Origin: Oscillospiraceae bacterium
GTDB taxonomy: Bacteria > Bacillota > Clostridia > Oscillospirales > Acutalibacteraceae
Length of the DNA: 32,000 bases
Direction of reading: 5' to 3'
Assembly (NCBI GenBank): GCA_022650485.1
Contig: JALCPP010000002.1
Location: 248,007 to 280,006, forward strand
Position 1 is the first letter of the stretch; the number at the start of each line of letters is the position of its first letter. Shown here one piece after another: positions 11,805 through 30,376 of the stretch. A program made the position numbers and the translations under genes. Under the pieces are notes generated by a model. It saw only the letters and a program-made list of their open reading frames with translations. It searched no databases and was not told where the DNA came from.

Positions 11805-12083
11805 ATGACGCTTGACCAGCTGCAAATTGGAAAAAGTTCCAGAATTCTGAAGGTCAGTGGGGAGGGTGCCCTGCGCCGCCGCTTACTGGATATGGGACTG
11901 ACTCCGCACACAACGGTAATGGTTCGTAAAATGGCGCCGATGGGCGACCCGATTGAGATCCATCTGCGCGGATATGAGCTGACCCTTCGGATTGATGATG
12001 CAAAGAAGATTGAGATTGAAGACCCCGGGAACTTTCAGGGGCACGGGCATCAGTATCGGCATCGAGGAGGAAATATTCTGTGA
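11805..12083 (+). CDS. feoA: Ferrous iron transport protein A (92 aa)
   Basis: The SH3-like FeoA pattern is LKVSGEGALRRRLLDMGLTPHTTVMVRKMAPMGDPIEIHLRGYELTLR. I chose the ATG at 11805 with SD AGGGGGAAAG. The stop overlaps the feoB GTG start. The C-terminal tail is His/Gly-rich (GHGHQYRHRGG). Confidence 0.9.
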   Translation: MTLDQLQIGKSSRILKVSGEGALRRRLLDMGLTPHTTVMVRKMAPMGDPIEIHLRGYELTLRIDDAKKIEIEDPGNFQGHGHQYRHRGGNIL

Positions 12084-15106: not shown

Positions 15107-15117
15107 AGGACTTCCCC

Positions 15118-15777
15118 CTAACGATAATAATTCAGGCGCTTTTCCGCCACGGTGAAGCAGCGGGTGACGACGGCGTTCATCGCCAGATAGAACACGGCGG
15201 CGATGGCGAACGGCGCCATGCTCACGGCGGAAGAGACCCAGTCCGACGTGACCCGCAGCAGCTCAGTCACACCGATGACCTGCGCCAGCGAGGTGTCTTT
15301 TACCAGATTAATCACTTCGTTGCTCATGGGCGGCAAAATCATTTTGCAGACCTGCGGCAGTACAATGCGGAAAAATGTTTGCTGTCTGGTAAAGCCCAGA
15401 ACCCGGGCTGCCTCATACTGGCCCTGCGGTACCGCGTCAATCCCGCCGCGAAAAATTTCGGCAAAATACGCCGCGTAGTTCAGCACAAATGCGACTTGGG
15501 CCGCAAGGACCCGGTCCAGCTGGATTCCGGTCAGCGGCTTCAGACCGTAGAAGATAAACAGAAGCTGAAGCATCAGCGGTGTGCCGCGCATGAACAGAAT
15601 ATAAAGCCGAACGGGCAGCTGAATGAATTTTACCTTTGTCCGGCGGCCCGCCGCTGCAAGCAGCCCCAGCGGAACGGAAAACAATAGGGTAACAAAGAAA
15701 ATACGCAGGGACATCAGAGAGGCTTCCAGCATTTGTGAAAGCAGCACGGAGTAATTCATCAGGGAGCAGTCCTCCAT
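15118..15777 (-). CDS. Polar amino-acid ABC transporter permease (His/Glu/Gln/Arg/opine family)
   Basis: EAA-loop region EAARVLGFTRQQTFFRIVLPQ and the N-terminal F.GTPL.LQL.F block are present. The start is either ATG 15777 or ATG 15759 (Met7, preceded by GGAGG). Confidence 0.9.
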   Translation of the reverse strand: MEDCSLMNYSVLLSQMLEASLMSLRIFFVTLLFSVPLGLLAAAGRRTKVKFIQLPVRLYILFMRGTPLMLQLLFIFYGLKPLTGIQLDRVLAAQVAFVLNYAAYFAEIFRGGIDAVPQGQYEAARVLGFTRQQTFFRIVLPQVCKMILPPMSNEVINLVKDTSLAQVIGVTELLRVTSDWVSSAVSMAPFAIAAVFYLAMNAVVTRCFTVAEKRLNYYR

Positions 15778-15822
15778 TATTTTTTCAAAAAAGAAATGGA
15801 TTTATCATTAGAGTTTGAGTCC

Positions 15823-16692
15823 TTATTTTCCGATGGTGGTTACATCGGCCTGAAACCATTTTTGGGAGATATCCGCAATGGCTCCGTCTTTTGTCAGGCC
15901 CTGCAGGGCGCCGTCTATTTTTTCCTTCAGGGCAAGGTCAGATTGGCGGAAGGCAATTACGTAGTCTTCGGTTGCCAGAGACACGTCTTTTCCATCCTTA
16001 TCCTGAAGGATAGCATAGGCTCCCGGTTCCTTCGTCAGGTAGTAGCGCGCCACAACTTCGTCAATGGCAATCGCGTCAATGGTGCCGTTTTGAATTTCCA
16101 GTACCGCTTTGCTGTAATCGTCAATCTTTACAACGCTTTTCAGCGAGTTTGTAAAATCCGGATTGTCTTTTAAGGCTGTTTCGGCGCTGGAATCCGCTTG
16201 TACGCCTACGGTTTTGCCCTGCAGACTTTCAAGACCCTTATAGTTCGAATCGGTTTTCACCAGAATAATCTGGTCGTTTTTCATGTAGGGAATGCTCAGT
16301 GCAAAGTCCTGTTCGCGTTTCGGTGTTTTGGAAAAACCGTTCCACAGGCAGTCCACATTGCCGTTGTTCAGTTCGGCTGTTTTATTGTCCCAGTTAATCG
16401 GCTGAAGGACCAGCTCAATCCCAAGCTTTTTGCAGGCTGCTGTCGCAAGGTCAATGTCGAAACCGACCAGATCGCCGGTCTGGGTGTCGACGTAGCCCAT
16501 GGGCGGGAATGCCTTGTCAAGGCCCAGCACCAGTTTGCCGGAGGATTTTACTTTATCCCAGGAAGTATCCGAAGTGCTTTGGGCAGAACCGTCTGCTGAA
16601 TCAGAGGAAGATGCAGGCTGTGGGGCGGCGGAACAACCTGCGAGTGCGAAGGTGAGCGCGGCGGTTAACAACAATCCTAAAACTTTTTTCAT
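15823..16692 (-). CDS. Amino-acid ABC transporter substrate-binding lipoprotein
   Basis: Signal peptide with lipobox LAGCSA, a Ser/Asp-rich linker, then a type-3 periplasmic-binding fold pattern (GFDIDLA...NGNVDCLWNGFS). I chose ATG 16692 (SD GAAGGGTGA, 6-nt spacing) rather than the track GTG at 16701. Confidence 0.9.
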   Translation of the reverse strand: MKKVLGLLLTAALTFALAGCSAAPQPASSSDSADGSAQSTSDTSWDKVKSSGKLVLGLDKAFPPMGYVDTQTGDLVGFDIDLATAACKKLGIELVLQPINWDNKTAELNNGNVDCLWNGFSKTPKREQDFALSIPYMKNDQIILVKTDSNYKGLESLQGKTVGVQADSSAETALKDNPDFTNSLKSVVKIDDYSKAVLEIQNGTIDAIAIDEVVARYYLTKEPGAYAILQDKDGKDVSLATEDYVIAFRQSDLALKEKIDGALQGLTKDGAIADISQKWFQADVTTIGK

Positions 16693-16736
16693 ATCATTCA
16701 CCCTTCAGTCATATTTACTCTTTGCAGTACAATACT

Positions 16737-18217: not shown

Positions 18218-19228
18218 TTATAGGGACCGGCAGGAAAGGTGCTTCTTTTTCTTTTCCTGATACAGGATGCGGTCCGCCTGCATCAGAATCTTGTCTGCGG
18301 TGCCTTTTGCCGGAACCGATGAATCGCTAAAGCTGATGTCCGCCTCTTTGTTGTGCAGTAAAACATAGGCCCCAAAAAGTTCTTTCACTTCATCCAAACG
18401 CCGCGTCAGGTCTTTCCGGTCGCCGTAATAGATAATTGCAAATTCATCCCCGCCCCAGCGGCTGACAATGTTACGGCCAAACCCTAAAAACTGCAGGAGA
18501 AGCTCGGATAATTTTTGAAGGACTTTATCTCCCTCCGAATGGCCGTAGATATCGTTTGCCTTTTTAAAGTTATCCACGTCAATTAGAACCAGGTAAGGCG
18601 TAGTGTGCCGTTCTGCAGTAGCCCGCTCAATTGCGGTGTTGAACATTCTTCGGTTGTAAAGGCCCGTCAGCGGGTCAACGTTGGCGCATTGATCCAGCTG
18701 GTCGTTGACCCGTTCATATTCTTTTGCAAATTGCAGAATGATGAAAAAGGAAGCCAGCAGCAACAGCGGAATCTGAATCATGCGGTCAATAAACTGACTC
18801 CATTCCGTGTGTTTTACAATCAGGTCCGGGTGAAGATATTCCACGGCATGCAGTCCCGTAAATACGGCGGTTAGCCCAAAAACAAAAAAGTATCGCTGCC
18901 AGCCGGAAAACAGGTAGATAATACAGATTAAAACCAGAAAAGTGTATCCGATCGCGTTGTTGTTGCTGCCGCCGGAATTAAAAAAGGCGAAAGGAAGAAA
19001 CAGAAAGATGATAAACGCAAAAACCGCGAACATGGTATGAGCCCGGTACGTTTTATGGTGCGAAAAGAAAAGCGCCGCAGTACATACACAAAAAAGCCCA
19101 AACCATTTGAAATTTACCTGCAGAGGGAATGTGCCCAGGCAATTCCCCAGGATGCAAATCATGGACAGTCCCATTCCCGAAAGTAGAATTGCCTTATATA
19201 AACGGACCTGAATATCAGACCGCTTCAT
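18218..19228 (-). CDS. Membrane-anchored diguanylate cyclase (GGDEF domain)
   Basis: A multi-TM N-terminal half is followed by DPLTGLYNRR...LIDVDNFKKANDIYGHSEGDKVL...RWGGDEFAIIY with an intact GGDEF. No RxxD I-site lies 5 residues upstream. I chose ATG 19228 (SD GGTGGA) rather than the track ATG at 19255, which has no SD. Confidence 0.9.
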   Translation of the reverse strand: MKRSDIQVRLYKAILLSGMGLSMICILGNCLGTFPLQVNFKWFGLFCVCTAALFFSHHKTYRAHTMFAVFAFIIFLFLPFAFFNSGGSNNNAIGYTFLVLICIIYLFSGWQRYFFVFGLTAVFTGLHAVEYLHPDLIVKHTEWSQFIDRMIQIPLLLLASFFIILQFAKEYERVNDQLDQCANVDPLTGLYNRRMFNTAIERATAERHTTPYLVLIDVDNFKKANDIYGHSEGDKVLQKLSELLLQFLGFGRNIVSRWGGDEFAIIYYGDRKDLTRRLDEVKELFGAYVLLHNKEADISFSDSSVPAKGTADKILMQADRILYQEKKKKHLSCRSL

Positions 19229-19317
19229 AGTTCCACCATTCTTCCTTTTACGCATAAAAGTTAAGAGTAGAGCATTGTAGAATCTTATCTAAACTGCAAC
19301 ACTGATTTTCTACCTTA

Positions 19318-19346
19318 ATTATATCAAAAAGCCCGCGGCAATGCAA
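19318..19346 (-). promoter_or_regulatory. Candidate sigma-A promoter for the GGDEF/dehydrogenase operon
   Basis: On the minus strand: TTGCAT (19346-19341), 17-nt spacer, TATAAT (19323-19318). Confidence 0.5.
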
Positions 19347-19514
19347 AAAAAATCGGTGGCACAGGGCAAAAATAAAAACGCTGCCGAGCCATTCGCAGAC
19401 GGATGACCGGAGCGCTTTTCAGGTTGGAACAAGCCAGTGCATTTCCTTTCAAATTCCGCGGGGAAAGCGGACGGAATATCGGCAGGATTCCTTTCTCTTC
19501 CAGGGAAGATTGTC

Positions 19515-19542
19515 TTGTACTTCTTCGATTCTTTGATATAAT
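19515..19542 (+). promoter_or_regulatory. Candidate sigma-A promoter for the split yeeE-tusA operon
   Basis: TTGTAC (19515-19520), 16-nt spacer, TATAAT (19537-19542), about 40 nt upstream of the ATG at 19584. Confidence 0.5.
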
Positions 19543-19583
19543 GAAATCAAACTTTAAGAACAACAACAGAGAAGGGTGGTTTT

Positions 19584-20276
19584 ATGCCTTCAGATGGTCT
19601 GAATGATCTAATACAGGAAAGACAGAAAAGCCGGCATGCGCAGCGGAAAAATCAGGTTCCATATGCGATGATTTTGCTGGTTCTTTCCTGTGTATACGCG
19701 TTTTTTTTGTGGCGGGACGGGCGCGGATATACCGCTTTCTGGTTAGTGGGCATCGCGCTGGGCTTTGTCATGAGAAATTCCCGCTTCTGTTTTGCGGCGA
19801 CTTTTCGGGACGCGTTCCTGTTTAAAAACACCAAACTGATGCGTGCCCTGATTCTGTCGCTTATCATCGGGACTCTCGGATTTGCGGCAATTCAGTTTCA
19901 GTATCTTAGAAATCATCCGGGTGCGGGGTATGACGAAATTCCGGGAATTTTTGATTCGGTTGGTCTGCATACCGTGATCGGCGCGTTCCTTTTTGGCGTG
20001 GGCATGGTGATTGCGGGCGGGTGTGCCGCCAGTGTGCTGATGAGAATTGGAGAAGGGCATGCGCTGCCGCTGATTACTCTTTTGGGATTTTTTATCGGAA
20101 CTACGCTGGGTGCGAAAGATTATCCGAACTGGTACGGCAGCATGATTCAAAACACCGGCGTGGTCTATCTTCCGGAATATATGAACTTTGGTGCCGCCGT
20201 GTTTTTGCAAATCGCTGTTTTAGCGGCTTTATACCGTCTGGCGCTGTGGTTTCAAAATCGGAAGCCGGAGAAATGA
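19584..20276 (+). CDS. YeeE/YedE-family sulfur-compound transporter, N-terminal-half protein (230 aa)
   Basis: Polytopic. It carries two of the three Cys motifs of full-length YeeE: NSRFCFAATFRD and IAGGCAASVLMRIGEG. SD is AGAAGGGTGG. Confidence 0.85.
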   Translation: MPSDGLNDLIQERQKSRHAQRKNQVPYAMILLVLSCVYAFFLWRDGRGYTAFWLVGIALGFVMRNSRFCFAATFRDAFLFKNTKLMRALILSLIIGTLGFAAIQFQYLRNHPGAGYDEIPGIFDSVGLHTVIGAFLFGVGMVIAGGCAASVLMRIGEGHALPLITLLGFFIGTTLGAKDYPNWYGSMIQNTGVVYLPEYMNFGAAVFLQIAVLAALYRLALWFQNRKPEK

Positions 20277-20290
20277 TAGGGAGAGGTTTC

Positions 20291-20515
20291 ATGAAAGTCA
20301 GGGATTTGGATTGTTTATATGAGGTTTGTCCGATTCCTTTAATCAAAGCCGTGAAAGAGCTGAAAAAGATGAATTCAGGGGACGTTTTGGTTGTTCATTC
20401 GGATGAAAGCTGCGTTGGGGTGATGATGGAAGAATGGGCCAAGCAAAATCATTATTCCATTCAGATTGAAGAACCGAAGGACGGCGAATGGGAAATTTAT
20501 CTTCAGAAGCCGTGA
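20291..20515 (+). CDS. tusA: TusA/YeeD/SirA-like sulfur-carrier protein (74 aa)
   Basis: DCLYEVCPIPLIKAVKELKKMNSGDVLVVHSDE is the conserved Cys-Pro persulfide-carrier motif and fold pattern. SD is GGGAGAGG. The gene is hidden inside a longer out-of-context track ORF (20021..20515). Confidence 0.85.
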   Translation: MKVRDLDCLYEVCPIPLIKAVKELKKMNSGDVLVVHSDESCVGVMMEEWAKQNHYSIQIEEPKDGEWEIYLQKP

Positions 20516-20541
20516 ATTTTGGAAAGGACGGAACGGATGCA

Positions 20542-21060
20542 ATGAAACGATGGCTCAAAAAGCCCTGGCCTTACTGGGCGGGGGGTGTGCTGCTCGGCTT
20601 GCTGAATATTCTTCTGCTTGCTGTCAGCGGCACTGTGTGGCAGGTGTCCGGCGGATATTTGCTGTGGGCTGCCGGAATTTTGGAGCGGTTCGGCTTAAAA
20701 CCGTTTCAATGGGATTACTTCCAGTCTTTTCAGCCAAGGTATGCCGAAATTATTGCCACGCATTCTGTTTTTTTCAACCAATACACGATTCTGAATCTGG
20801 GTGTTGCTGCGGGTGCGCTGATCGCGGCTCTGCTGGCTTCTCAGTTTAAACTGGGAAAGATAAAAGGCTGGAAGCAGGCCGCGTTTGCCCTGCTTGGCGG
20901 CATCCTGATGGGGTATGGGTCCAGACTGACGGGCGGCTGCAACATCGGCGGCTTTTTCAGTGGAATTCCGTCTCTGTCGCTGCACGCGTGGGTATTTTGG
21001 ATTTTTGCCATGGCGGGCGCCTGGCTTGGAGCAAAACTGTTAATCCGGTTTATGACGTGA
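20542..21060 (+). CDS. YeeE/YedE-family sulfur-compound transporter, C-terminal-half protein (172 aa)
   Basis: Polytopic. It carries the third YeeE Cys motif, SRLTGGCNIGGFFSG. I chose ATG 20542 (MKRWLKKPW..., SD GGAAAGGACGG) rather than the track start at 20488. Confidence 0.85.
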   Translation: MKRWLKKPWPYWAGGVLLGLLNILLLAVSGTVWQVSGGYLLWAAGILERFGLKPFQWDYFQSFQPRYAEIIATHSVFFNQYTILNLGVAAGALIAALLASQFKLGKIKGWKQAAFALLGGILMGYGSRLTGGCNIGGFFSGIPSLSLHAWVFWIFAMAGAWLGAKLLIRFMT

Positions 21061-21066
21061 CCGGGT

Positions 21067-21957
21067 TCAGCAGAATCCGCGCTGGGTGGAATGAATAAAT
21101 TCGATAAAGTTTTTCTCCTGTTCCGACGGAACGGAATCTTTTCGGTAAGCCATGTTATAGTTAAAAACAATTTTCAGCTGATCGGTTTTGATCTGCTTTA
21201 AAGTGCCTTCTTTCAGCTCTTTTTTAATCATTAGTTTTGGTAAAAATGAAAATCCTTTTCCCGCTGAAATGGAGGATTTAATCGCTCCGGGGGAATCCAG
21301 ATTATAAATTACGTTTAATTGGTCTAAGCTGACGCCTTTTTTCTGCAGGGCTTCTTCCAGCAGGTACCTTGTGCCGGAAGTCTGTTCCCGCAGAATGAGC
21401 GGCAGCTTTTTTAGTTCTTCCAACGTAATTTCACCTTGACTGCCGTCTGCGCATCCGGCAAGAACAATCTCATCCGAAATGATGGGGCTTGCGACGATCT
21501 CATCCATCCGCGGGTGGTCCTGAATGATGCCCAGGTTGATGGTGTGATCCAGAAGTTTTTTAATCACCTCGGTGGAATTCATCAGCTTGATGTGAATGTC
21601 AACCTCTTCGTAAAACTTTTTAAAAATATAGAGGCTGCAGGGAAGAGCGTATTCCCCAACGGCGTAGCAGGAACCGATGATAAGCTTCGGGTGGCTTTCC
21701 TGAAGGCTTTTTAAATCCCTTTTGATATTGCCCTTCAGCGAAAGAATGGTGACGGCATAGTTGTAGACTACTTTTCCCTCTTCCGTCAGCTGTACCCCTT
21801 TGTTGCTGCGGTCCAACAGCTTGGTTCCCATTTCGTTTTCCAAATTTTTCAGCTGCAGGCTCAGCCCCGGCTGTGTCAGGTGCAGAGCGACGGCCGCCTT
21901 GGAAATATTGTTGTATTTTACGGCAGTGTAAAAAGATTCCAGGTATTGAAAGTTCAT
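21067..21957 (-). CDS. LysR-family transcriptional regulator
   Basis: The N-terminal HTH is MNFQYLESFYTAVKYNNISKAAVALHLTQPGLSLQLKNLENEMGTKLLDR, with a C-terminal LysR substrate-binding domain. I chose ATG 21957; the track TTG at 21972 adds 5 residues. It is divergent from tauCAB. Confidence 0.9.
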   Translation of the reverse strand: MNFQYLESFYTAVKYNNISKAAVALHLTQPGLSLQLKNLENEMGTKLLDRSNKGVQLTEEGKVVYNYAVTILSLKGNIKRDLKSLQESHPKLIIGSCYAVGEYALPCSLYIFKKFYEEVDIHIKLMNSTEVIKKLLDHTINLGIIQDHPRMDEIVASPIISDEIVLAGCADGSQGEITLEELKKLPLILREQTSGTRYLLEEALQKKGVSLDQLNVIYNLDSPGAIKSSISAGKGFSFLPKLMIKKELKEGTLKQIKTDQLKIVFNYNMAYRKDSVPSEQEKNFIEFIHSTQRGFC

Positions 21958-22045
21958 AAATGTCACATCCAAATAAAAATCACTTCTATTGTATCATTAC
22001 TTTGTTAAAAAATAAACCCGGCATTCAGAAGGGCATAGCGAACTC

Positions 22046-22058
22046 TTATGCAGGATAA
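22046..22058. promoter_or_regulatory. T-N11-A dyad TTATGCAGGATAA, candidate LysR-type regulator binding site
   Basis: TTAT-N5-ATAA fits the generic LysR T-N11-A rule, and a further TTAT lies 7 bp downstream. The site is about 12 bp upstream of the weak -35 of the tauC promoter candidate. Confidence 0.3.
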
Positions 22059-22069
22059 CAAATCCTTAT

Positions 22070-22098
22070 TAGAATTTTGGGCTACTGTGTATTATAAT
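22070..22098 (+). promoter_or_regulatory. Candidate activator-dependent promoter for tauCAB
   Basis: Perfect TATAAT (22093-22098) with a poor -35 (TAGAAT/TTAGAA, 17-18 nt spacing), as expected for a LysR-activated promoter. Confidence 0.4.
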
Positions 22099-22222
22099 GA
22101 CAATAGATTGAGATTTAATTAACAAGCACGCGAAATGGGGCGACAATCAGCGCTGCACCAGGTGCTCTGGGCGGGGCGGACTGAATGGAGGCGATGGGAC
22201 GATCATTACCAATCGAAAACGT

Positions 22223-22984
22223 TTGTTTGAAAAAGTACTGACATTCGGAACCATCGCCGTTATTCTGGCTTTGTGGTTTGCGGTTACGGGATTGCAGTTG
22301 GTTGACCCCAAACTGGTGCCGTCCCCCCAGTCCGTTTGGACTGCTTTTCTGGATATTGCGCAGAACGGATACCGCAACCGAACTCTTTTTCAGCATATTG
22401 GGGCGAGTTTGGGCCGGCTGATTGCGGCATTTCTACTTGCCGCAGCCGCGGCGGTCCCACTGGGCCTGGCAAGCGGGTTTAACGCTAAGATACGAGCGGT
22501 ATTGGAGCCGGTCATCGAGTTTTACAGACCGCTTCCGCCCCTTGCGTACTACACAATTTTGGTCTTATGGCTGGGAATTGGGGACCAGTCTAAGATTGCG
22601 CTTCTCCTGCTGGCCTGCTTTGCACCGGTTTATGTTTCCTGTGTTGCCGCGGTGATAAAAATTAATCAGGATTACCTGAACTGCGCGTATGCGGTGGGGG
22701 CCGGGCGGTGGCAGGTGTTCCTCCATGTGGTGTTCCCTGCCTGTCTGCCCGATGTGCTGACGGGACTGCGAACGGCTCTGGGGGTTGGATACACGACGCT
22801 GGTATCGGCAGAAATGGTCGCGGCGACCTCCGGACTTGGCTGGATGGTACTGGATGCCAGCCGCCTTTTAAGAAGCGACATCACTTTTTTGGGAATTATC
22901 ATTATGGGGATTACCGGGGTCCTGATGGACCGGGGCCTGCGGCTTTTGGAGCGCAGACTGGTTCCCTGGAAAGGAAAAGAATAA
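22223..22984 (+). CDS. tauC: Taurine/aliphatic-sulfonate ABC transporter permease
   Basis: EFYRPLPPLAYYTILVLWLGIGDQSKIALL, VFPACLPDVLTGLRTALGVGYTTLVSAEMVAATSGLGWMV and the C-terminal LERRLVPWKG closely parallel E. coli TauC as I recall it. The start is uncertain: the TTG at 22223 has no SD (see findings). Confidence 0.85.
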   Translation: MFEKVLTFGTIAVILALWFAVTGLQLVDPKLVPSPQSVWTAFLDIAQNGYRNRTLFQHIGASLGRLIAAFLLAAAAAVPLGLASGFNAKIRAVLEPVIEFYRPLPPLAYYTILVLWLGIGDQSKIALLLLACFAPVYVSCVAAVIKINQDYLNCAYAVGAGRWQVFLHVVFPACLPDVLTGLRTALGVGYTTLVSAEMVAATSGLGWMVLDASRLLRSDITFLGIIIMGITGVLMDRGLRLLERRLVPWKGKE

Positions 22985-23013
22985 AAGACACAAAGGGAAG
23001 GGGGATGTTTTTG

Positions 23014-24048
23014 ATGAAGTGCGGTAAATTGTTCCGTGTCCTTATCATGGCGCTTTCGGCAGCCTTGCTGTTTGCGGGCTGTTCCGCTGCAAAAAACGCG
23101 GGCGGTGCCGGGGATTCCGGCCAGCCGGAGGTTGTCAATATCGGAACCCAGCAGATGCCGAACGATGAAAGAATTGCGATTGCGAAAGACTACTTTGAAG
23201 AAGAACTCGGTGTAAAAGTGAACATTGTGGAATTTCAGGCCGGAGATATCCGGAATGCCATGATTGCAAAGAACATTGATTTTGCTCTGCTTGGTTCTGC
23301 TTCCGCCACCCTTGGAATTGCAAACGGGATGAACGTTGAACTGATTTGGGTTCATGAAGTCCTGGGGGATGCGGAGCAGCTGGCTGCAAAAAATGGTTCC
23401 GGCATTCGGTCCGTTCAGGACCTGAAGGGAAAGAAGATTGCAACCGCCTTTACCACGACTGCACATTACAGCCTGCTGAAGGCTTTGCAAAAAAATGGAA
23501 TTTCAGAAAAAGACGTTACGCTGCTCGATATGCAGATGCCCGATCTCTATGCGGCGTGGCAGCGGGGCAATATTGACGCGGCCTATGCTTGGGAGCCGAC
23601 CCTGTCTAAATTGTTAAAAGACGGGACTTCCCTCCTTTCCAGTGAAGATCTGGCGGCCAGCGGGGTTATCACTTCCAATGTGGAGATTGTACGAAAAGAA
23701 TTTGCTCAGCAGTATCCGCAGATTGTCACAAATTATGTGAAGGCTTTGAACAAGGCGGTCGAACTGTACCGCCAGAATCCGGCAGAAGCGGTTGGAACGG
23801 TTGCACAGGCTTTGAATCTTTCCGAAGAGGAAACGGCGAAACAGATGCAGGGTTCCACCTGGCTCAATGAGGAAGAACAACTGTCTTCCGATTATCTGGG
23901 TACCAGTTCCCAAAAAGGCAGGATTGTAAACTCCCTGAAAGATACGGCGGATTTTTTGTACGAACAAAAGAGCCTGGTTTCCGAACCAAAGCTCGAAACC
24001 TTTGAACAGGCCGTCAACCCAGCCTATGTTGAGAAAGCCCTGCAATAG
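23014..24048 (+). CDS. tauA: Taurine/sulfonate ABC transporter substrate-binding lipoprotein
   Basis: The signal peptide has the lipobox LFAGCSA. TTAHYSLLKALQKNGI and AAWQRGNIDAAYAWEPTLSKLLKDG match the TauA blocks TTHYSLLAALKHWGI and AAWQRGDIDGAYVWAPA as I recall them. The start is ATG 23014 (SD GGGAAGGGGG) or ATG 23005. The track ORF start at 22708 is an artefactual extension overlapping tauC. Confidence 0.85.
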   Translation: MKCGKLFRVLIMALSAALLFAGCSAAKNAGGAGDSGQPEVVNIGTQQMPNDERIAIAKDYFEEELGVKVNIVEFQAGDIRNAMIAKNIDFALLGSASATLGIANGMNVELIWVHEVLGDAEQLAAKNGSGIRSVQDLKGKKIATAFTTTAHYSLLKALQKNGISEKDVTLLDMQMPDLYAAWQRGNIDAAYAWEPTLSKLLKDGTSLLSSEDLAASGVITSNVEIVRKEFAQQYPQIVTNYVKALNKAVELYRQNPAEAVGTVAQALNLSEEETAKQMQGSTWLNEEEQLSSDYLGTSSQKGRIVNSLKDTADFLYEQKSLVSEPKLETFEQAVNPAYVEKALQ

Positions 24049-24069
24049 GGCGCGGTGGGAGGACTCTGT

Positions 24070-24879
24070 GTGAATCAATTAAGGCAAAAGCAGGAAGAAC
24101 CGCTTCTTGCGCTGAACCATATCAGCTTTCGGTACCCCGCAAAAAAAGACGAGATTACCGCCCTGCGCAGCCTGAGCTTTACCGTGGAAACGGGTGAGTT
24201 TCTCTGTGTCCTTGGCCCTTCCGGATGCGGAAAGAGCACCTTGTTGAGAATGATCGCAGGATTTCTCAAGCCGACTCAGGGAGAAATCCGGATGGACGGC
24301 CGGCGCATACAGGGGCCGGACTGGCACCGGGGTGTCATTTTTCAGGCGCCTACCTTATATTCTTGGCTGAATGTGCGGGAAAATATCGCTTTCGGCCTCA
24401 AAATGAGAAAAACAGCGAAAGACGAAATCCGTAATGTAACGCAGAGTTATATTGAGAGGGTCGGTTTAAAGGGCTTTGAAACAAAGAAGCCCTATGAACT
24501 TTCGGGTGGGATGAAGCAGAGGGTTTCGCTTGCCAGGGCTTTGGTAAACCAACCGGATCTTCTTCTGATGGATGAACCGCTTGGGGCGCTGGATGCGCTG
24601 ACACGGCAGGATATGCAGGCTTTGGTCCGTAAAATCTGGCACGAAACGGGAAACACGGTTTTGCTGGTTACGCATGACGTGGATGAAGCGCTGGCGCTTG
24701 GTACAAGAATTATGGTGCTGTCAAGCAGACCTGGCAGAATTCTGAATGAGTTTTATCCGGACTTTACCCGCCGGTTTCTCAGCGGTGACGGGGAAGAAGT
24801 TCAGTATTTACCCGAATATCTGGCAATGCGCAGAGAAATCATGAAGGAAATGATCCGCGAGAGCGGGCCGGCAGAATGA
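24070..24879 (+). CDS. tauB: Taurine/sulfonate ABC transporter ATP-binding protein
   Basis: Walker A GPSGCGKST, signature LSGGMKQRVSLARAL, Walker B LLLMDEPLGALD, H-loop VTHDVDEA. It belongs to the NitT/TauT family. The start is GTG 24070 (SD GGTGGGAGGA, 6 nt upstream) or GTG 24055. Confidence 0.9.
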   Translation: MNQLRQKQEEPLLALNHISFRYPAKKDEITALRSLSFTVETGEFLCVLGPSGCGKSTLLRMIAGFLKPTQGEIRMDGRRIQGPDWHRGVIFQAPTLYSWLNVRENIAFGLKMRKTAKDEIRNVTQSYIERVGLKGFETKKPYELSGGMKQRVSLARALVNQPDLLLMDEPLGALDALTRQDMQALVRKIWHETGNTVLLVTHDVDEALALGTRIMVLSSRPGRILNEFYPDFTRRFLSGDGEEVQYLPEYLAMRREIMKEMIRESGPAE

Positions 24880-24950
24880 TCCGAAAATCCGGGTTGAACA
24901 TGTGAAATAACCGGACAAAGGGCTACAAAACATAATGCTAAGTCAATTAG

Positions 24951-24968
24951 TTGTTAATTTATTAACAA
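24951..24968. promoter_or_regulatory. Rex-type operator TTGTTAATTTATTAACAA
   Basis: 8-bp perfect arms. All 14 specified positions match the clostridial Rex consensus TTGTTAAnnnnTTAACAA (established motif, recalled). The site lies 105 nt upstream of the yeeE2 ATG, with a TACAAT -10-like hexamer at 24978-24983. Confidence 0.55.
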
Positions 24969-25072
24969 TATTTTGAATACAATGATGGAATTAAGTTTTG
25001 CTGAAAGGTTGTGGTTGCGGACGAAATACGGTAAAAATCATCAGCCATTATGAAAAAGTTAGGAGTGGAGTT

Positions 25073-26359
25073 ATGAACAAGAAAGAACAGATTTTAGGGT
25101 TTGTGGTTGTGGTTTTATCGCTTTTGCTCGGCAAGGCGTTTTTACAGACGGATATTTTTCTTCGGCTTGCCATCGGGCTGGCACTGGGTTATTCCTTAAT
25201 GAGGGCTTACACGGGGTTTGCCGGCAGCATTAACCGCGCATATCGGACCGGGTCGACAAAGCTGATGCGGGCCTTAATGCTTATGTTTTTTGTTTCCAGT
25301 GTACTGACGGGCGCATTTTTGCTTAAAACAGATGCAACATCATATGGACTGTGGGTCAATCCGATTAACTTCGGTTTGCTGCTCGGGGGTGTGCTGTTTG
25401 GGTTCGGCATGGCACTGTCGTCCTGCTGTGCCACCGGTGTGATGACCGACCTTGTGGTTGGGCTGCCGCGTGCGTTTATCACATTGCTGTTTTTCGGAAT
25501 GGGCGTTTTTCTCGGCTTCCCGGTGCAGCATACCGCAGGTTGGGTGCAGAATTCCTGGTTTGCCACACCGACGGGGGAAAAGCTTTACGGCGGCGTATTC
25601 CTGCCGGACCTGTTCCGGGGTGACGGACTGAACGGTTACCTGGGAGCGCTGCTTTTGACGGGCCTGTTCTGCGGGATTGTGGTATATTTTTCTTACCGGT
25701 ATGAAAAATCGCGCAAACAAAACAATACATTTGTGGGTAACGAGACGGAAATCATGCAGGAAAAGTCCGATGCCTTCGACAGCAAGAATTATAAGCTTTT
25801 CAGCATGGAAACGGTTTACCGTGTATTCGCAAAGCCGTGGACTCTGGCGCAGGGAGCGATCGTGCTCAGCGTTCTGTTTGCGGTGCTGATGGGTACCACC
25901 AAGGAAGGCTGGGGAGCTTCTACCCCCTATGGCCTCTGGTTTGGAAAGCTGCTGATTGCTTTTGGCGTTTCGCCGGATGCCGTGGCGTCCTTTGCCCAGA
26001 TGAAACCGGATGCGTATGTGCTGCCGTTCTTCCAGCATGGGGTGTCTGTACAGAACTTCGGCATTATCTTGGGTACGATTTGCTACCTGCTGATTGCCGG
26101 TGTGTTTGGAAAGACATTCCGTGAAGGTCTGCACATCACGTTGCGTGAAGGATTGATTTTTGCACTGGGCGGCCTTTGCATGGGTGTGGGAACAAGATTT
26201 TCGAACGGATGCAATGTGGGCGCGCTGTACACGCCGATTGCGAATTTCTCACTTTCCGGCTGGGTGTTCCTGATCTTTTTGGTGCTGGGCGGAATTGTGG
26301 GCAACATATTTGGAAAGATGGTTGCTGCCAAAAAAGGAGCCGGCGGACTTTTGGGTTAA
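25073..26359 (+). CDS. YeeE/YedE-family sulfur-compound transporter, full-length divergent paralogue (428 aa)
   Basis: Polytopic, with motifs FGMALSSCCATGVMTD and GTRFSNGCNVGALY. The position of the first YeeE Cys motif reads MRAYTGFAGSINRAY, with no Cys. I chose ATG 25073 with SD AGGAGTGGAG; the track start at 24998 is an extension. Confidence 0.85.
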   Translation: MNKKEQILGFVVVVLSLLLGKAFLQTDIFLRLAIGLALGYSLMRAYTGFAGSINRAYRTGSTKLMRALMLMFFVSSVLTGAFLLKTDATSYGLWVNPINFGLLLGGVLFGFGMALSSCCATGVMTDLVVGLPRAFITLLFFGMGVFLGFPVQHTAGWVQNSWFATPTGEKLYGGVFLPDLFRGDGLNGYLGALLLTGLFCGIVVYFSYRYEKSRKQNNTFVGNETEIMQEKSDAFDSKNYKLFSMETVYRVFAKPWTLAQGAIVLSVLFAVLMGTTKEGWGASTPYGLWFGKLLIAFGVSPDAVASFAQMKPDAYVLPFFQHGVSVQNFGIILGTICYLLIAGVFGKTFREGLHITLREGLIFALGGLCMGVGTRFSNGCNVGALYTPIANFSLSGWVFLIFLVLGGIVGNIFGKMVAAKKGAGGLLG

Positions 26360-26400
26360 ACGGCTGAACATTTAATCAATGGAAGAGAGGAATCATTACT

Positions 26401-28098
26401 ATGGGTAAAAAGATCTTGATCGTCGGCGGAGTTGCCGGCGGAGCTTCTGTGGCCGCAAGGGCGCGCAGACTGGATGAATCGGCTGAAATCGTGATGTTTG
26501 AAAAGGGACCGCACGTTTCTTTTTCCAACTGTGCGCTTCCGTTTTTCCTGAGCAGAGTGGTGCCGGAAAGCGATAATCTGGTGCTGATGAGCCCGGAACA
26601 GTTTAAAAATCAGTATCATATTGAAGCCAGAGTGAACTGTGAAGTAATGAAAGTCAACCGTAAAGAGAAAAAAATTACGGTTCGGAATCTGGCAGGCGGC
26701 GAAGAATACGAAGAGTCTTATGACAAACTGGTACTGTCCCCCGGCGCGGTGCCGCTTCTTCCCAGAAGTATTGAAGGAATTGACCGCCCGAATGTTTTTA
26801 CGGTTCGCAATGTTGTTGATATCCGCAAACTCGACCAGTATGTCACAGAAAACGGAATTCAGGATGTCGCGGTGGTCGGCGGTGGATTCATCGGTGTTGA
26901 AGTAGCCGAAAATCTGCGCATGGCGGGCAAAAATGTCAGCCTGATTGAGGCGCTTGACCAGATTATGGCTCCGTTTGATTACGATATGGCCCAGATGCTC
27001 CACAAAGAAATGCTGGACCATGGCGTCAATCTGATTTTGAGCGACGGTGTGAAAAAGATCAATGAAGATTCCGTCGAACTGCAGTCCGGAAAAGTTGTTT
27101 CCGCCAAAGCGGTTGTCATGGCAATCGGCGTTCGCCCGGAAACAAGTCTTGCAAAAGACGCGGGGCTTGAAATCGGGGAAACCGGCGGCATCAAGGTGGA
27201 CCATAACTATGTGACCAGCGACCCGGATATCTATGCGGTCGGCGACGCAATTGAGGTTTATCATCAGCTGACCCATAAACCGACCCGGCTGGCTCTTGCC
27301 GGACCGGCCCAGAGGCAGGCCCGCGCGGCGGCCGATCATATGTATCGGATTCCGCATAATAATAACGGGGTGATCGGTTCTTCCGTCGTTCGAATTTTTG
27401 ATTTAAACGCCGCGTCTACCGGCCTGAATGAAAAAGCAGCAAAAGCGGCGGGAATTTCTTACGACTTTGTGTATATTATTCCTGTGGATAAAGTTGGTCT
27501 GATGCCCGAAAGCCATCCGCTGCACTTCAAACTGCTGTACGAATATCCGACCGGCAGGATTTTAGGCGCGCAGGCCATCGGAAAGGGAGATGCGGACAAG
27601 AGAGTCGACGTGATTGCCGCCATGATTTCTATGGGCGCGACGCTGGAAGATTTGAAAGAGCTGGAGCTGTGCTATGCTCCTCTGTTCGGCACCGCGAAGG
27701 ATGCCGTTAATCATGCGGCTTTGGTTGGCCTGAATCTTCTGTACGGCCGCTTTCAACAAGTGCCGGTTACCAAAGTACGCGAACTGGTTGAAAACAACGC
27801 GTTTATTATCGATGTCCGCGAGAAAAACGAATACGCAAACGGCCATCTGATTAACGCGGTCAATATTCCGCTCAGCGAAATCAGAGATCGTTTGGATGAA
27901 ATCCCGAAAGACCGGCCGGTCTATCTGCACTGCCGCAGCAGCCAGAGAAGCTACAATGCGGTGATGGCATTGGAAAACCTGGGGTATGACAATGTTTTCA
28001 ATATCTCCGGTTCCTACCTGGGAATCTGCTGCTATGAATATTATCAGGATCAGGTAACAGGAAGAAAAAAGATTGTTACAAAATATAATTTTGCCTAA
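26401..28098 (+). CDS. CoA-disulfide reductase-family flavoprotein fused to a C-terminal rhodanese domain (CoADR-RHD / NAD(P)H persulfide-polysulfide reductase type, 565 aa)
   Basis: FAD motif ILIVGGVAGGAS, redox Cys in SFSNCALPF, NAD motif VAVVGGGFIGVE, GDA motif YAVGDAI. The rhodanese domain has the active-site loop LHCRSSQRS. SD is GAAGAGAGGAA. Confidence 0.9.
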   Translation: MGKKILIVGGVAGGASVAARARRLDESAEIVMFEKGPHVSFSNCALPFFLSRVVPESDNLVLMSPEQFKNQYHIEARVNCEVMKVNRKEKKITVRNLAGGEEYEESYDKLVLSPGAVPLLPRSIEGIDRPNVFTVRNVVDIRKLDQYVTENGIQDVAVVGGGFIGVEVAENLRMAGKNVSLIEALDQIMAPFDYDMAQMLHKEMLDHGVNLILSDGVKKINEDSVELQSGKVVSAKAVVMAIGVRPETSLAKDAGLEIGETGGIKVDHNYVTSDPDIYAVGDAIEVYHQLTHKPTRLALAGPAQRQARAAADHMYRIPHNNNGVIGSSVVRIFDLNAASTGLNEKAAKAAGISYDFVYIIPVDKVGLMPESHPLHFKLLYEYPTGRILGAQAIGKGDADKRVDVIAAMISMGATLEDLKELELCYAPLFGTAKDAVNHAALVGLNLLYGRFQQVPVTKVRELVENNAFIIDVREKNEYANGHLINAVNIPLSEIRDRLDEIPKDRPVYLHCRSSQRSYNAVMALENLGYDNVFNISGSYLGICCYEYYQDQVTGRKKIVTKYNFA

Positions 28099-28114
28099 AA
28101 GGGCAGATGAAGAA

Positions 28115-28151
28115 AACGGACCGCCGGATTGCTTCCCGGCGGTTCGTTTTT
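28115..28151 (+). terminator. Rho-independent terminator after the CoADR-RHD gene
   Basis: ACGGACCGCCGG / CCGGCGGTTCGT is a 12-bp stem with one G-U pair and loop ATTGCTTC, followed by TTTTTT. Confidence 0.85.
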
Positions 28152-28484: not shown

Positions 28485-28880
28485 TTGCAAAATGATCAAG
28501 AAGAAAAATCGGCTCAATCGGGGCTTGGCCAGTTCTTTTTGGGATTGATACTGCTTGGTGTGGGGCTTTTTCTCTTCAGCAGGCGTGTGATTGTCAGAAC
28601 GGATTATTTCTTCGGTGGTGGCCCGCTGCGGTATGCTGCTTCTCCGGGCCTTATGGTGCTTCCTTTCTTAGTTGGCGTTTTTTGGATGTTTTTTAATAAA
28701 AAATCCTTTTTAGCTAAAGTCGTTACGGTCTTGGGTATTGCACTGGTTGTTTTTTCGCTTATCATGAGCATTCGTATGACCTTTGTTTCTACTCCTCTTT
28801 ACGAGTACATTGTAATTATAGGGATGATTGCCGCTGGGAGCGGCCTGCTGTTTAAGGTGTTATTCAAATCAGATAAATAG
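28485..28880 (+). CDS. Small 4-TM membrane protein upstream of pspA (131 aa, TTG start), LiaI/LiaF-TM-like by architecture
   Basis: There are four hydrophobic segments (FFLGLILLGVGLFLF, GLMVLPFLVGVFWMFF, VVTVLGIALVVFSLIM, YIVIIGMIAAGSGLLF). SD GGGAGGTG lies 5 nt before the TTG, and a 17-nt gap separates it from pspA. The family assignment rests on size, topology and context only. Confidence 0.55.
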   Translation: MQNDQEEKSAQSGLGQFFLGLILLGVGLFLFSRRVIVRTDYFFGGGPLRYAASPGLMVLPFLVGVFWMFFNKKSFLAKVVTVLGIALVVFSLIMSIRMTFVSTPLYEYIVIIGMIAAGSGLLFKVLFKSDK

Positions 28881-28897
28881 TTTAGGAGGAAGAAAGA

Positions 28898-29569
28898 ATG
28901 GCAATTTTTGAAAGAATCGGTGACCTTGTAAAAGCAAATATCAATGATTTGATTGACAGAGCTGAAAATCCGGAAAAAATGGTCAAGCAGATTATTATCG
29001 ATATGGAGGAGCAGCTCAGAAAAGCGACACAGGGCCTCGGCTCCGCCATGGCAAGTCAAAATCAGGTGAACAAGCAGTTGAATAATGCCAAATCCCAGTC
29101 GGCGAAATGGCAGGAAAAAGCCAAGATGTGCCTGAAGGCAGGGAATGAAGAGCTTGCAAAACAGGCTTTGGCCAATAAGGTTCAGCAGGATAATCAGGTT
29201 GAGCAGTACGGAGCAATGGCGGCGTCTATGAACGCGCAGGTCAGTGAGCTGCGTTCTCAGGTTTCCATGCTGAAGGGAAAGCTTGATGAAGCCAGGTCAA
29301 AGCAGGCTATGCTGATTGCAAGGTCGAAGATGGCGGATGCGAGGTCGGACATGTCCAAAACCCTGGGGAGTATGGACAGTGGCAGCGCATTTGCAAAACT
29401 GGACAAAATGGAGCAGAAAATTTCTAATAAAGAGGCAAAAGCAGACGCTTTTGCACAGATTTCCGGTATGGAAACTGCGAGTGAAGATCCATTTGCCAAA
29501 ATGGAAGCGGATGTCGATGTCAATACCGAATTGGAGAAGCTCAAACAGGAATTGGGTTCAGCAGAGTAA
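28898..29569 (+). CDS. pspA: PspA/IM30-family protein (phage-shock protein A / LiaH-like, 223 aa)
   Basis: MAIFERIGDLVKANINDLIDRAENPEKM is the canonical PspA N-terminus, followed by long coiled-coil heptads. SD is TAGGAGGAAG. Confidence 0.9.
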   Translation: MAIFERIGDLVKANINDLIDRAENPEKMVKQIIIDMEEQLRKATQGLGSAMASQNQVNKQLNNAKSQSAKWQEKAKMCLKAGNEELAKQALANKVQQDNQVEQYGAMAASMNAQVSELRSQVSMLKGKLDEARSKQAMLIARSKMADARSDMSKTLGSMDSGSAFAKLDKMEQKISNKEAKADAFAQISGMETASEDPFAKMEADVDVNTELEKLKQELGSAE

Positions 29570-29584
29570 GGGAGGAAATTCTGA

Positions 29585-30376
29585 ATGCATCCAATACAGA
29601 TTGTGGCGATTCTTCTTATCATTGCGGGGCCGTTCTGCATCTTTTATATTCGGCCTAAGATGAATAACAGGGTCACAGAAATGAAATTTATGCAGACAAA
29701 GACAATTGCAGAACTGCGAAAGATGTTTGCGCAGATGGGCGAAAACGGTCTGCAGGACAGTTACAGGGAATACGTCGAACTGAAAGGTTCCGCCGTCTGT
29801 GACCAGCCGGTGGAAACCCCGTTTTCAAACCAACAGGCCGTTTACTGTGAATCGCAGCTGAGTCAGGTGACGGAGCAGCGCGAAAGATATCGGGATTCCG
29901 ACGGGCATTGGCAGGAAAGAATGGTGCGGCGCGAAAACATCATTTCCAATGAAAAATCAAGCCAGTATATATCCATGAAGGATTCGTCGGGCGATGAGAA
30001 GGTGGTTCTTGAAATCAATGCTCCCGGCTGTTCTCTCGACGTTCCGCAAACGTTTGATCGTTTCGAGCCGAGGGGAAATCTTTCAAGATACCGGTTTTTT
30101 AATTCTTTTTCCTTTGGGGGTTATGGCGCAGATACTTTGGGCTTTCGCATGAAAGAAAAGATCATTCGGCAAAATCAGCAGCTTTATGTTCTGGGTGAAG
30201 CATATCTATCTGGTGACGAAATCCATGTCAGTGCGCCGAACGACAAGAAACAACCGTTTCTGGTTACAACCAAGTCTGAAGATGATATGGTTAAGTCCAA
30301 CGAACGGAATTCTCAGGTAGCATTGATTGGCGGAATCGTATCGGTTGTTTTGGGCGTTTTGATCTTTTTTCTCTGA
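29585..30376 (+). CDS. Bitopic membrane protein with a GIDE-like central domain (263 aa)
   Basis: N-terminal TM (IVAILLIIAGPFCIFYI) and C-terminal TM (VALIGGIVSVVLGVLIFFL) flank about 200 aa. The pattern VELKGSAVCDQPVETPFSNQQAVYCE...SMKDSSGDEKVVLEINAPG...YVLGEAY resembles the bacterial GIDE / E3-ligase-like family (PF12483) as I recall it. SD is GGGAGG, with a 15-nt gap after pspA. The CDS call is solid; the family call needs an HMM search. Confidence 0.6.
   Translation: MHPIQIVAILLIIAGPFCIFYIRPKMNNRVTEMKFMQTKTIAELRKMFAQMGENGLQDSYREYVELKGSAVCDQPVETPFSNQQAVYCESQLSQVTEQRERYRDSDGHWQERMVRRENIISNEKSSQYISMKDSSGDEKVVLEINAPGCSLDVPQTFDRFEPRGNLSRYRFFNSFSFGGYGADTLGFRMKEKIIRQNQQLYVLGEAYLSGDEIHVSAPNDKKQPFLVTTKSEDDMVKSNERNSQVALIGGIVSVVLGVLIFFL

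Follow-up and report, generated by a model that had tools for sequence, protein, structure and literature searches.

The 32-kb stretch of DNA analysed here (the window; 32,000 nucleotides of contig JALCPP010000002.1) comes from the metagenome-assembled genome of an Oscillospiraceae bacterium, a fermenting organism of the gut/digester type, the nearest cultured relatives of which are Caproicibacter and Caproiciproducens, and it harbors a nine-gene locus (19584-28098) in which all catalytic cysteines are kept. The locus comprises a YeeE-type channel split into two genes with a TusA-type sulfur carrier gene nested between them, a LysR-type regulator, an ATP-binding cassette (ABC) importer resembling TauABC, a second, full-length YeeE protein (YeeE2) and a flavoprotein of the rhodanese-fused CoADR-RHD type, and it most likely serves the uptake and NAD(P)H-dependent reduction of thiosulfate or sulfane sulfur. 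The genes, which were called from a listing of open reading frames (ORFs) together with Pfam and NCBIfam scans of the window proteins, and the terminator-like element behind them are as follows:

19584-20276, forward strand: yeeE-N, 230 aa, matching positions 2-154 of the 310 of the Pfam Sulf_transp profile (E = 5e-29)
20291-20515, forward strand: tusA/tsuB-like sulfur carrier gene, 74 aa (Pfam TusA, E = 3e-19)
20488-21060, forward strand: yeeE-C, 190 aa, with a later start possible at 20542, matching Sulf_transp profile positions 164-310 of 310 (E = 2.5e-34)
21067-21972, reverse strand, convergent: lysR (Pfam HTH_1 and LysR_substrate)
22223-22984, forward strand: tauC-like ABC permease gene, 253 aa (Pfam BPD_transp_1; best match NCBIfam TauC)
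23005-24048, forward strand: gene for a TauA-like substrate-binding protein, 347 aa, with a lipoprotein-type N-terminus
24055-24879, forward strand: tauB-like ABC ATPase gene (Pfam ABC_tran), the precise start codon being uncertain
25073-26359, forward strand: yeeE2, 428 aa, full-length Sulf_transp (profile positions 2-309, E = 3e-48)
26401-28098, forward strand: gene for a CoADR-RHD / Npsr / CoAPR-type flavoprotein, 565 aa (Pfam Pyr_redox_2, Pyr_redox_dim and Rhodanese)
28125-28146, forward strand: terminator-like hairpin followed by a T-run (consensus scan), closing the yeeE2/CoADR-RHD transcription unit

An earlier annotation by a model that saw only the letters and their ORFs (the sequence-only reading) had placed nine genes within 19515-28151, and all of them were recovered on the strands given there by ORF listing, Pfam and NCBIfam; its start coordinate, 19515, is that of the -35 hexamer TTGTAC in a promoter of the form TTGTAC-N16-TGaTATAAT. 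Its statements that no terminator separates tauB from yeeE2 and that genes for desulfonation and cysteine synthase are lacking also stand, as the consensus scan gave no terminator-like hairpin on the forward strand between the two genes and none of these enzymes is encoded in the 32-kb window. That every gene is sulfur-related holds by family membership, which is the sole basis of this claim, and the curated family nearest to the LysR protein is associated with selenium. Translated from 24055, tauB has no identical database entry.

The locus is modular, and its modules are associated in many other genomes. Sampling one genome per species with a YeeE2 alignment yielded 79 loci with flanks of up to 10 kb, which were compared with the nine window proteins by tblastn and grouped by all-against-all ORF clustering. 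CoADR-RHD adjoins YeeE2 in 69 of the 79 loci, and 57 of these 69 carry one of two further transporters, namely a TauCAB-like importer (30 loci) or an APC-family permease (27 loci), but never both (Fisher p = 3.5e-10). Where the loci were mapped, the gene for the APC permease, a protein of 440 aa, is a neighbor of the core on the same strand and mostly comes immediately behind CoADR-RHD; the TauCAB-like genes, which likewise share the strand of the core, precede or follow it according to lineage, and in one Crassaminicella locus the slot of the third transporter is filled by a Na+/alanine-family (AGCS) symporter. The split-YeeE/TusA module was found in 18 loci and is accompanied by an orthologous LysR in 14 of them, while all nine genes occur together in six loci (L001-L004, L012 and L020) and in two that were found separately, in C. 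fermenticellae and Pelotomaculum schinkii. The joint recurrence of the modules in many lineages, under several independent gene orders, puts their linkage far beyond chance and shows that it has survived rearrangements. The locus thus consists of a near-universal core of YeeE2 and CoADR-RHD, an interchangeable third transporter and an optional split-YeeE/TusA/LysR module. A check of co-occurrence in relatives, which the sequence-only reading had called for, therefore turned out positive, and the nine-gene unit that it described is real as a recurrent association, but not as a fixed block.

A second line of evidence for a joint system comes from the promoter regions, in which the following elements were located in the window:

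19515-19542, forward strand: promoter of yeeE-N/tusA/yeeE-C, with the -35 hexamer TTGTAC (19515-19520), a 16-nt spacer and an extended -10 element TGaTATAAT (19534-19542)
22035-22049 and 22055-22069, forward strand: two tandem LysR-type boxes (ATA-N9-TAT), ATAGCGAACTCTTAT and ATAACAAATCCTTAT, adjoining a weak -35 region
22093-22098, forward strand: -10 element TATAAT of tauC
22108-22125, forward strand: Rex-like operator TTGAGATTTAATTAACAA
24951-24968, forward strand: clostridial Rex box TTGTTAATTTATTAACAA, 105 nt upstream of yeeE2

The two LysR boxes, the weak -35 region, the -10 element and the Rex-like operator form one composite promoter before tauC. The operator TTGAGATTTAATTAACAA lies across the site where transcription is expected to start; it departs from TTGTTAANNNNTTAACAA, the clostridial Rex consensus as published (PMC5367854), at 3 positions, its right half being perfect. 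A double LysR box upstream of tauC and/or CoADR-yeeE2 was found by regular-expression scan in L001-L004, L012, L020, L080 and L082, and by a relaxed scan with direct reading also in L081, L083 and L084. The same composite stands before tauC in L001-L003 and L012, before both tauC and CoADR-yeeE2 in L004, L020 and L084, before CoADR-yeeE2 in C. tetani, and before the symporter-CoADR-yeeE2 operon in Crassaminicella. In C. tetani the tauCAB genes are not linked to the core, and they are preceded by the same double LysR box, -10 element and TTGAGATAAAATTAACAA element (L083, 5958-6051, compared with L080, 10799), which constitutes evidence at the level of a regulon, independent of gene proximity. 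In the 1.46 Mb of loci there are 20 combined composite matches, each of them immediately before a gene that belongs to the system. In relatives, a conserved element TTGAGA-N5-TTAACAA occupies the position of the operator and grades into near-consensus Rex boxes in Clostridium loci, and those Clostridium loci that have the APC permease carry a near-consensus Rex box at the equivalent position. Judged by this common promoter type, tauCAB and CoADR-yeeE2 are predicted to be co-regulated, and we infer that the boxes are those of this LysR and of Rex.

The perfect Rex box before yeeE2, already pointed out in the sequence-only reading, matches TTGTTAANNNNTTAACAA throughout and is the sole match in the 32-kb window at ≤ 2 mismatches; no match was found to the longer Rex consensus TTGTKAAN6TTMACAA. 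Of 80 loci, 11 have a Rex-like box with ≤ 2 mismatches in the 400 nt before yeeE2, compared with about 1.2 expected from the background density, an enrichment of about 9-fold. A Rex-regulated TusA/CoADR operon has been predicted in Caldicellulosiruptor (PMC8579813). For the yeeE-N operon, control by LysR or Rex was rejected, as neither box lies upstream of it in the window or in most relatives (one exception being Maledivibacter, L026); a TATAAT-type -10 element stands at the same place before yeeE-N in relatives, without LysR boxes or a Rex-like box. Control by a riboswitch or leader was likewise rejected: Rfam gave nothing at gathering thresholds over the whole window and nothing at E ≤ 1 over 19200-25100, hence no S-box, T-box or other riboswitch, and the 118-nt tauC leader folds no better than its shuffles (z = -1.1).

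The split channel and its carrier resemble the YeeE/YeeD (TsuA/TsuB) pair of E. coli and Spirochaeta thermophila, in which YeeE and YeeD import thiosulfate and YeeD is the essential partner that decomposes it (PMC11073785). Aligned to 6LEO, yeeE-N keeps the equivalents of S. thermophila YeeE Cys22 (SRFCF) and Cys91 (AGGCA), and aligned to 8J4C/6LEO, yeeE-C keeps that of Cys293 (TGGCNIG), so that the split YeeE has all three channel cysteines of YeeE/YeeD-type thiosulfate uptake; NCBI annotates a protein identical to yeeE-N as YeeE/YedE family protein. The co-encoded TusA has a CPxP cysteine (EVCPIP) that aligns with EVCPIP of StYeeD, the YeeD part of the StYeeE-YeeD fusion 8K1R, and its best NCBIfam match is TsuB/YeeD. 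Compared with TsuA/TsuB, however, the channel is encoded by a 230-aa and a 190-aa gene rather than as a single polypeptide of ~330-350 aa reaching the TsuA/TsuB cut-offs, the TusA gene is nested between the halves, and the scores are far below the curated limits (37.8 bits against a cut-off of 147.5 for TusA; 69 and 32-56 bits against cut-offs of 400-645 for the YeeE halves in the TsuA models). An alternative tusA ATG at 20273 overlaps the yeeE-N stop as ATGA (20273-20276), the last 28 nt of tusA (20488-20515) also belong to the longest yeeE-C ORF, and translational coupling of the three genes is possible. The start of tusA differs between the NCBI and JGI annotations (74 and 89 aa). In the NCBIfam model selen_YedE_FdhT the order of the halves is permuted (first gene at positions 178-383, third gene at 2-158), whereas they are collinear in Sulf_transp and TsuA; the permutation probably reflects the internal two-fold repeat of the fold.

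The second channel, YeeE2, differs from TsuA/TsuB in being paired with a rhodanese-fused reductase rather than with a TusA protein. Alignment to 6LEO and to 15 orthologs revealed equivalents of Cys91 (SSCCA, Cys118/119, with an extra adjacent cysteine) and Cys293 (NGCNVG, Cys380), no equivalent of Cys22, and a long central insertion of about 90 aa. An NCBI entry from a metagenome-assembled genome is 100% identical to YeeE2, and orthologs with 56-81% identity are widespread in Clostridia, Bacilli and Halanaerobiales, and are found in some Treponema and Fusobacterium. CoADR-RHD can be aligned from end to end with 3ICR of B. anthracis (E = 2.5e-145), Shewanella Npsr 3NTA (1.8e-141) and E. faecalis CoAPR 8A56 (4.6e-127). 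As in these proteins, a CoADR domain (Pyr_redox_2, E = 4e-60) with the single redox cysteine of the SFxNC motif (Cys44 in SFSNC, aligned with SFANC of 3ICR and 3NTA) is followed by a C-terminal rhodanese domain (residues 458-541, E = 7e-20), in which the cysteine of LHCRSSQRS aligns with that of ITCQLGMRG in 3ICR and IFCQVGLRG in 3NTA. With 442 bits against a cut-off of 578.8 in the CoA-disulfide reductase equivalog TIGR03385, the protein is assigned by its sequence to the rhodanese-fused branch and not to the plain CoADR equivalog. E. faecalis CoAPR converts CoA persulfide to H2S via its rhodanese cysteine and a swinging CoA arm (PMC9405070). It belongs to a CstR-controlled cst-like operon with free rhodaneses, whereas the gene described here follows YeeE2 and the TauCAB-like genes and is associated with LysR/Rex-type signals; CstR, persulfide dioxygenase, SQR and free rhodaneses are all lacking in the window, which places the gene outside cst-like operons.

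The third transporter shares with TauABC and SsuABC its three-component architecture and its best-scoring families, and the TauA-like protein most closely resembles TauA of E. coli (6SSY, E = 2.6e-36). With 173.5 bits it exceeds the 163.5 cut-off of SsuA_fam (TIGR01728), a broad subfamily membership that assigns no ligand, whereas the NCBIfam equivalog cut-offs are missed by all three components (TauA 210.6 against 304.25, TauC 265 against 342 and TauB 271.2 against 357). The roles of the ligand residues of TauA are known, including that of Asp205 in taurine selectivity and high-affinity taurine binding (PMC6906117), and these residues were mapped onto 31 orthologs, 30 of which cover position 205. 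The window protein keeps Gln30, Gly61, Gly79, Glu106, Thr132 and Trp176, but has Asn in place of Asp205 and Ser in place of Leu204. Gly61, Gly79, Glu106, Thr132 and Trp176 are invariant across the 31 orthologs, position 205 is occupied by Asn without exception in the 30 that cover it, Ala or Ser replaces Leu204 in 28 of 31, and Leu or Ile replaces Gln30 in 20 of 31. Since Asp205 is replaced in every ortholog scored and other pocket positions are changed as well, the proteins are classed on sequence as a distinct TauA-like subfamily, and membership among canonical taurine importers was rejected. The window protein is accordingly not predicted to be a canonical taurine binder; taurine as its ligand is not established, which also applies to the "sulfonate-type importer" of the sequence-only reading, although the ligand probably bears an amino group. 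Further differences from TauABC/SsuABC are the gene order C-A-B, the absence of tauD and ssuD from the window, and the sharing of the core-adjacent position with the APC permease of other genomes.

The LysR protein, the true start of which is likely the ATG at 21957, as family alignments begin at residue 6, has its best NCBIfam match in LysR_Sec_metab (NF040786; 227.8 bits, below the cut-off of 250), and scores about 67-82 bits in the CysB and Cbl families. All 16 orthologs compared have Cys102 and Cys112 (GSCYAVGEYALPC), and 15 of them have the C-terminal Cys301 as well; the three cysteines could form a redox or persulfide-sensing site. It is conceivable, by analogy, that the Cys102/Cys112 pair makes LysR a sensor of sulfane sulfur. 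In Hyphomicrobium denitrificans, the YeeE-like membrane protein SoxT1B has been proposed to deliver sulfur, together with TusA, to the transcription factor SoxR (PMC11582611), and this arrangement is mirrored here by the linkage of the split YeeE/TusA operon to an orthologous, cysteine-containing LysR in 14 of 18 loci. The regulator is, however, an ArsR-type SoxR there and a LysR here, the context is oxidative there and reductive here, and signalling in the present locus would be hypothetical.

Several loci show variations of their own. YeeE2 is duplicated in tandem in L021, L029 and L047, and a second copy of CoADR-RHD is present in L061. In Pelotomaculum schinkii (L085, 1236-10437), insertion sequences pervade the nine-gene locus: yeeE-N is broken up by rve and IS21-type genes, which also stand beside lysR, and tauB is separated from yeeE2 by an IS110 transposase gene. 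The full nine-gene locus of C. fermenticellae (L084) is neighbored at 1-3482 by three more genes, namely a NIR_SIR/4Fe-4S gene taken as AsrC-like, one for a 540-aa pyridine-nucleotide-disulfide oxidoreductase that lacks a rhodanese domain, and another LysR gene, which together hint at a link with sulfite reduction. Ten loci, mainly of Halanaerobiales and including several metagenome-assembled genomes classified only as Bacillota/Clostridia (L024, L026, L034, L051, L053, L062, L065, L070, L072 and L076), have beside the core varying subsets of genes for secreted tandem-rhodaneses, a PMT-like membrane protein, an ATP-grasp protein (L-amino-acid-ligase-like) and a second NMT1/SsuA-type ABC system. 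Three of these loci, L024, L034 and L051, have a rhodanese gene with a Rex-like box TTGTACTTT(T/A)TTTAACA in front of it. Halanaerobium is known to convert thiosulfate to sulfide, and rhodanese proteins are induced there when thiosulfate is present (PMC5497025); secreted rhodanese genes, which may or may not encode the thiosulfate-induced rhodaneses, adjoin the YeeE2/CoADR-RHD core in the Halanaerobium loci of the sample.

In the interpretation favored here, to which about even chances are given, the locus would be a jointly regulated system for the uptake of thiosulfate or sulfane sulfur and its reduction with NAD(P)H, acting mainly as a fermentative electron sink and generator of sulfide. 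YeeE2 would import thiosulfate or polysulfide-type sulfur, and the rhodanese cysteine of CoADR-RHD would take over the sulfane sulfur, releasing sulfite if thiosulfate is the donor. Bound CoA would then deliver this sulfur to Cys44 and FAD, the site of its reduction to H2S by NAD(P)H. Expression would require both LysR, signalling that substrate is present, and relief of Rex repression at a high NADH/NAD+ ratio. The split YeeE with its nested TusA would be a TsuA/TsuB-type thiosulfate channel feeding either assimilation or the LysR sensor, and the TauCAB-like importer would bring in a second substrate that carries an amino group and is not canonical taurine. Rex-type control fits such a pathway because the pathway would consume NADH. 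The design of uptake coupled to NAD(P)H-dependent reduction put forward in the sequence-only reading appears largely borne out by gene content, linkage and cis-elements, the TusA and rhodanese cysteines being intact. Where that reading had sulfide released for assimilation or detoxification, Rex-type control together with the lack of a riboswitch favors a redox sink over assimilation.

Four precedents from the literature speak for this interpretation, of which those of YeeE/YeeD, E. faecalis CoAPR and Halanaerobium were described above; the fourth is Thermotoga maritima, the CoADR-family NSR of which is an NAD(P)H-dependent thiosulfate and polysulfide reductase, and in which yeeE is induced 42-fold by thiosulfate (PMC9431562). 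With its yeeE/dsrE/tusA cluster, this organism likewise combines a YeeE-type importer with a CoADR-family NAD(P)H reductase, and the formation of H2S from thiosulfate or S0 has been proposed to serve as a fermentative sink. In contrast to the locus described here, the two T. maritima genes have widely separated locus tags, and no rhodanese, ABC or APC importer, or LysR/Rex promoter is mentioned in that study (PMC9431562).

A number of points weigh against the electron-sink interpretation. All of its functional assignments (substrate, transport direction and regulator binding) derive from homology and context. The reduction of thiosulfate by NADH is thermodynamically unfavorable unless sulfite is removed, and no sulfite reductase or exporter is encoded in the window. 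Because the Cys22 equivalent is lost and its scores are far below the TsuA cut-offs, YeeE2 may have a substrate other than thiosulfate. The role of the TauCAB-like importer is not explained by a purely inorganic-sulfur model. As for regulation, no rex gene lies within the 32-kb window, and the left half of the conserved operator, TTGAGA, is consistently non-palindromic, so that this operator may bind a protein other than Rex. The perfect Rex box before yeeE2 is absent from the closest relatives (L001-L003 and L012), in which the tauB-yeeE2 spacer has diverged in the alignment, and the idea that this box is ancestral was dropped for that reason. The dual control by LysR and Rex that the sequence-only reading had proposed is plausible, and through the conserved composite promoter would be tighter than proposed.

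The locus could instead serve defence against reactive sulfur, with CoADR-RHD acting as a CoA-persulfide reductase that protects the CoA pool at elevated sulfide or polysulfide, like the cst-like operon of E. faecalis, the YeeE proteins moving sulfur species and LysR sensing persulfide stress. The similarity to E. faecalis CoAPR, with both cysteines kept, is in line with this, as CoAPR is specific for CoA persulfide and induced by sulfide, and addition of sulfide to E. faecalis raises the level of its Rex protein as well (PMC9405070); the invariance of Cys102 and Cys112 among the LysR orthologs would suit a persulfide sensor too. High-affinity import through an ABC system with a binding protein and two YeeE channels is, however, hard to square with detoxification, the window lacks the CstR, persulfide dioxygenase and SQR genes of such a response, Rex-type control suits the disposal of NADH, and the secreted rhodaneses of the Halanaerobiales loci suggest the use of external sulfur. 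Defence as the main role is therefore regarded as rather unlikely.

Assimilation under sulfur limitation, by which TsuA/TsuB-like uptake of thiosulfate and TauABC-like uptake of sulfonates would provide the sulfur for cysteine, CoADR-RHD would free sulfide from the persulfides so formed and LysR would act like CysB or Cbl, is quite unlikely. YeeE/YeeD (PMC11073785) and TauABC (PMC6906117) are both assimilatory in E. coli, the split YeeE retains the three essential cysteines and TusA its CPxP motif, and CysB and Cbl are among the weaker matches of LysR. This LysR is nevertheless far nearer to LysR_Sec_metab than to either of them, Asp205 of TauA is replaced throughout the orthologs scored, and genes for desulfonation, cysteine synthase and sulfite reductase are absent from the window. 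The Rfam searches detected neither S-box nor T-box nor any other riboswitch, and Rex-like operators are atypical for assimilatory genes.

A very improbable third alternative is selenium trafficking, in which the split YeeE, TusA and LysR would be a YedE/SirA-like/LysR_Se-type module, possibly with CoADR-RHD reducing selenium compounds. It is prompted by the scores of the YeeE halves in selen_YedE_FdhT (96 and 106 bits, compared with 69 and 56 for TsuA), by the selenium-associated family that is the best match of LysR at 227.8 bits, and by the archaeal YedE, which is split into two genes, and the usual adjacency of YedE to a SirA-like gene and its link to LysR_Se (PMC5322559). None of the selenium-family scores, however, reaches its curated cut-off (350 for the YeeE halves and 250 for LysR); LysR_Se membership, for which a score of at least 250 and a selD/selA/selB/YedE neighborhood are called for, thus fails. 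The halves are collinear with TsuA and keep the three cysteines, and TusA is a single-domain protein, not of the two-domain YedF type, that scores better against TsuB/YeeD than against YedF. SelD, SelA and SelB are missing among the annotated recurrent neighbor families and the L080-L085 Pfam tables, most single-locus neighbors being unannotated, and the module goes consistently with CoADR-RHD and YeeE2, two proteins found in Lactobacillales and Erysipelothrix as well. Finally, a chance juxtaposition of independent sulfur-related operons, suggested by the separate yeeE-N promoter without LysR or Rex-like boxes, the varying combinations of modules among loci and the unlinked tauCAB of C. tetani, is hardly credible and largely refuted by recurrent linkage in many lineages and gene orders, the strict either/or exchange of TauCAB-like importer and APC permease, and the composite promoter common even to that unlinked tauCAB.

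A more far-reaching version of the electron-sink interpretation would make the locus a two-input, two-substrate sulfur regulon of anaerobic Firmicutes, in which sensing through the split YeeE/TusA and LysR, import of an amino-organosulfur compound and Rex-gated reduction are joined; with all parts taken together, it is a speculative proposal of low probability. In its sensory part, the split YeeE/TusA would, by analogy with SoxT1B, load sulfane sulfur onto Cys102/Cys112 of the LysR activator. In its import part, the third transporter, whether TauCAB-like with Asn205, APC or AGCS, would take up an amino-organosulfur compound so far unrecognised, for which thiotaurine, S-sulfocysteine and cysteine per- or trisulfide would be candidates, and in its reductive part CoADR-RHD would free the sulfane or sulfo group of that compound as a Rex-gated sink for NADH.

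The genes flanking the locus are unrelated to it. Those upstream encode a GGDEF protein, a 2-hydroxyacid dehydrogenase and a polar amino-acid ABC system; those downstream (28485-30376) encode a small membrane protein and, behind it, PspA and a GIDE-domain protein. Other unrelated genes of the window encode an H+-pyrophosphatase (3410-5530), a lactate/malate dehydrogenase (10543-11490) and FeoB (12080-14086). The upstream ABC system consists of three genes on the reverse strand (14342-16701; SBP_bac_3, permease and ATPase), 3 kb from the locus, and its best NCBIfam matches include cystine systems (TcyN 323 bits, cystine permease 148 and cystine substrate-binding protein 126, all below the cut-offs), so that it may, by its family matches, be an additional sulfur-related importer.

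Each part of the locus belongs to a known family, and the individual components, the co-induction of yeeE and NSR in T. maritima and the Rex target in Caldicellulosiruptor have already been described. In the accessible literature, most subscription titles lying outside the search, no earlier description was found of the YeeE2/CoADR-RHD core with an interchangeable TauCAB-like or APC transporter, of a split YeeE with nested TusA linked to LysR, or of the composite LysR/Rex-like promoter. Many fermenting anaerobes make H2S from thiosulfate or sulfur without respiratory reductases, among them Clostridium, Halanaerobium, the Oscillospiraceae of digesters and chain-elongation reactors, and some Treponema and Fusobacterium, and the genes responsible are only partly known. 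The present analysis defines a widespread genetic unit, consisting of YeeE2 and CoADR-RHD, in which the third importer is exchanged for non-homologous transporters by lineage, and the common promoter of which appears to integrate the sensing of substrate by LysR with the NADH/NAD+ status reported by Rex. If this holds true, it would explain NADH-linked sulfidogenesis, with relevance to gut H2S, reservoir souring and corrosion, would give the poorly understood CoADR-RHD enzymes of anaerobes a physiological role, and would indicate a new class of ligands for TauA-like binding proteins.

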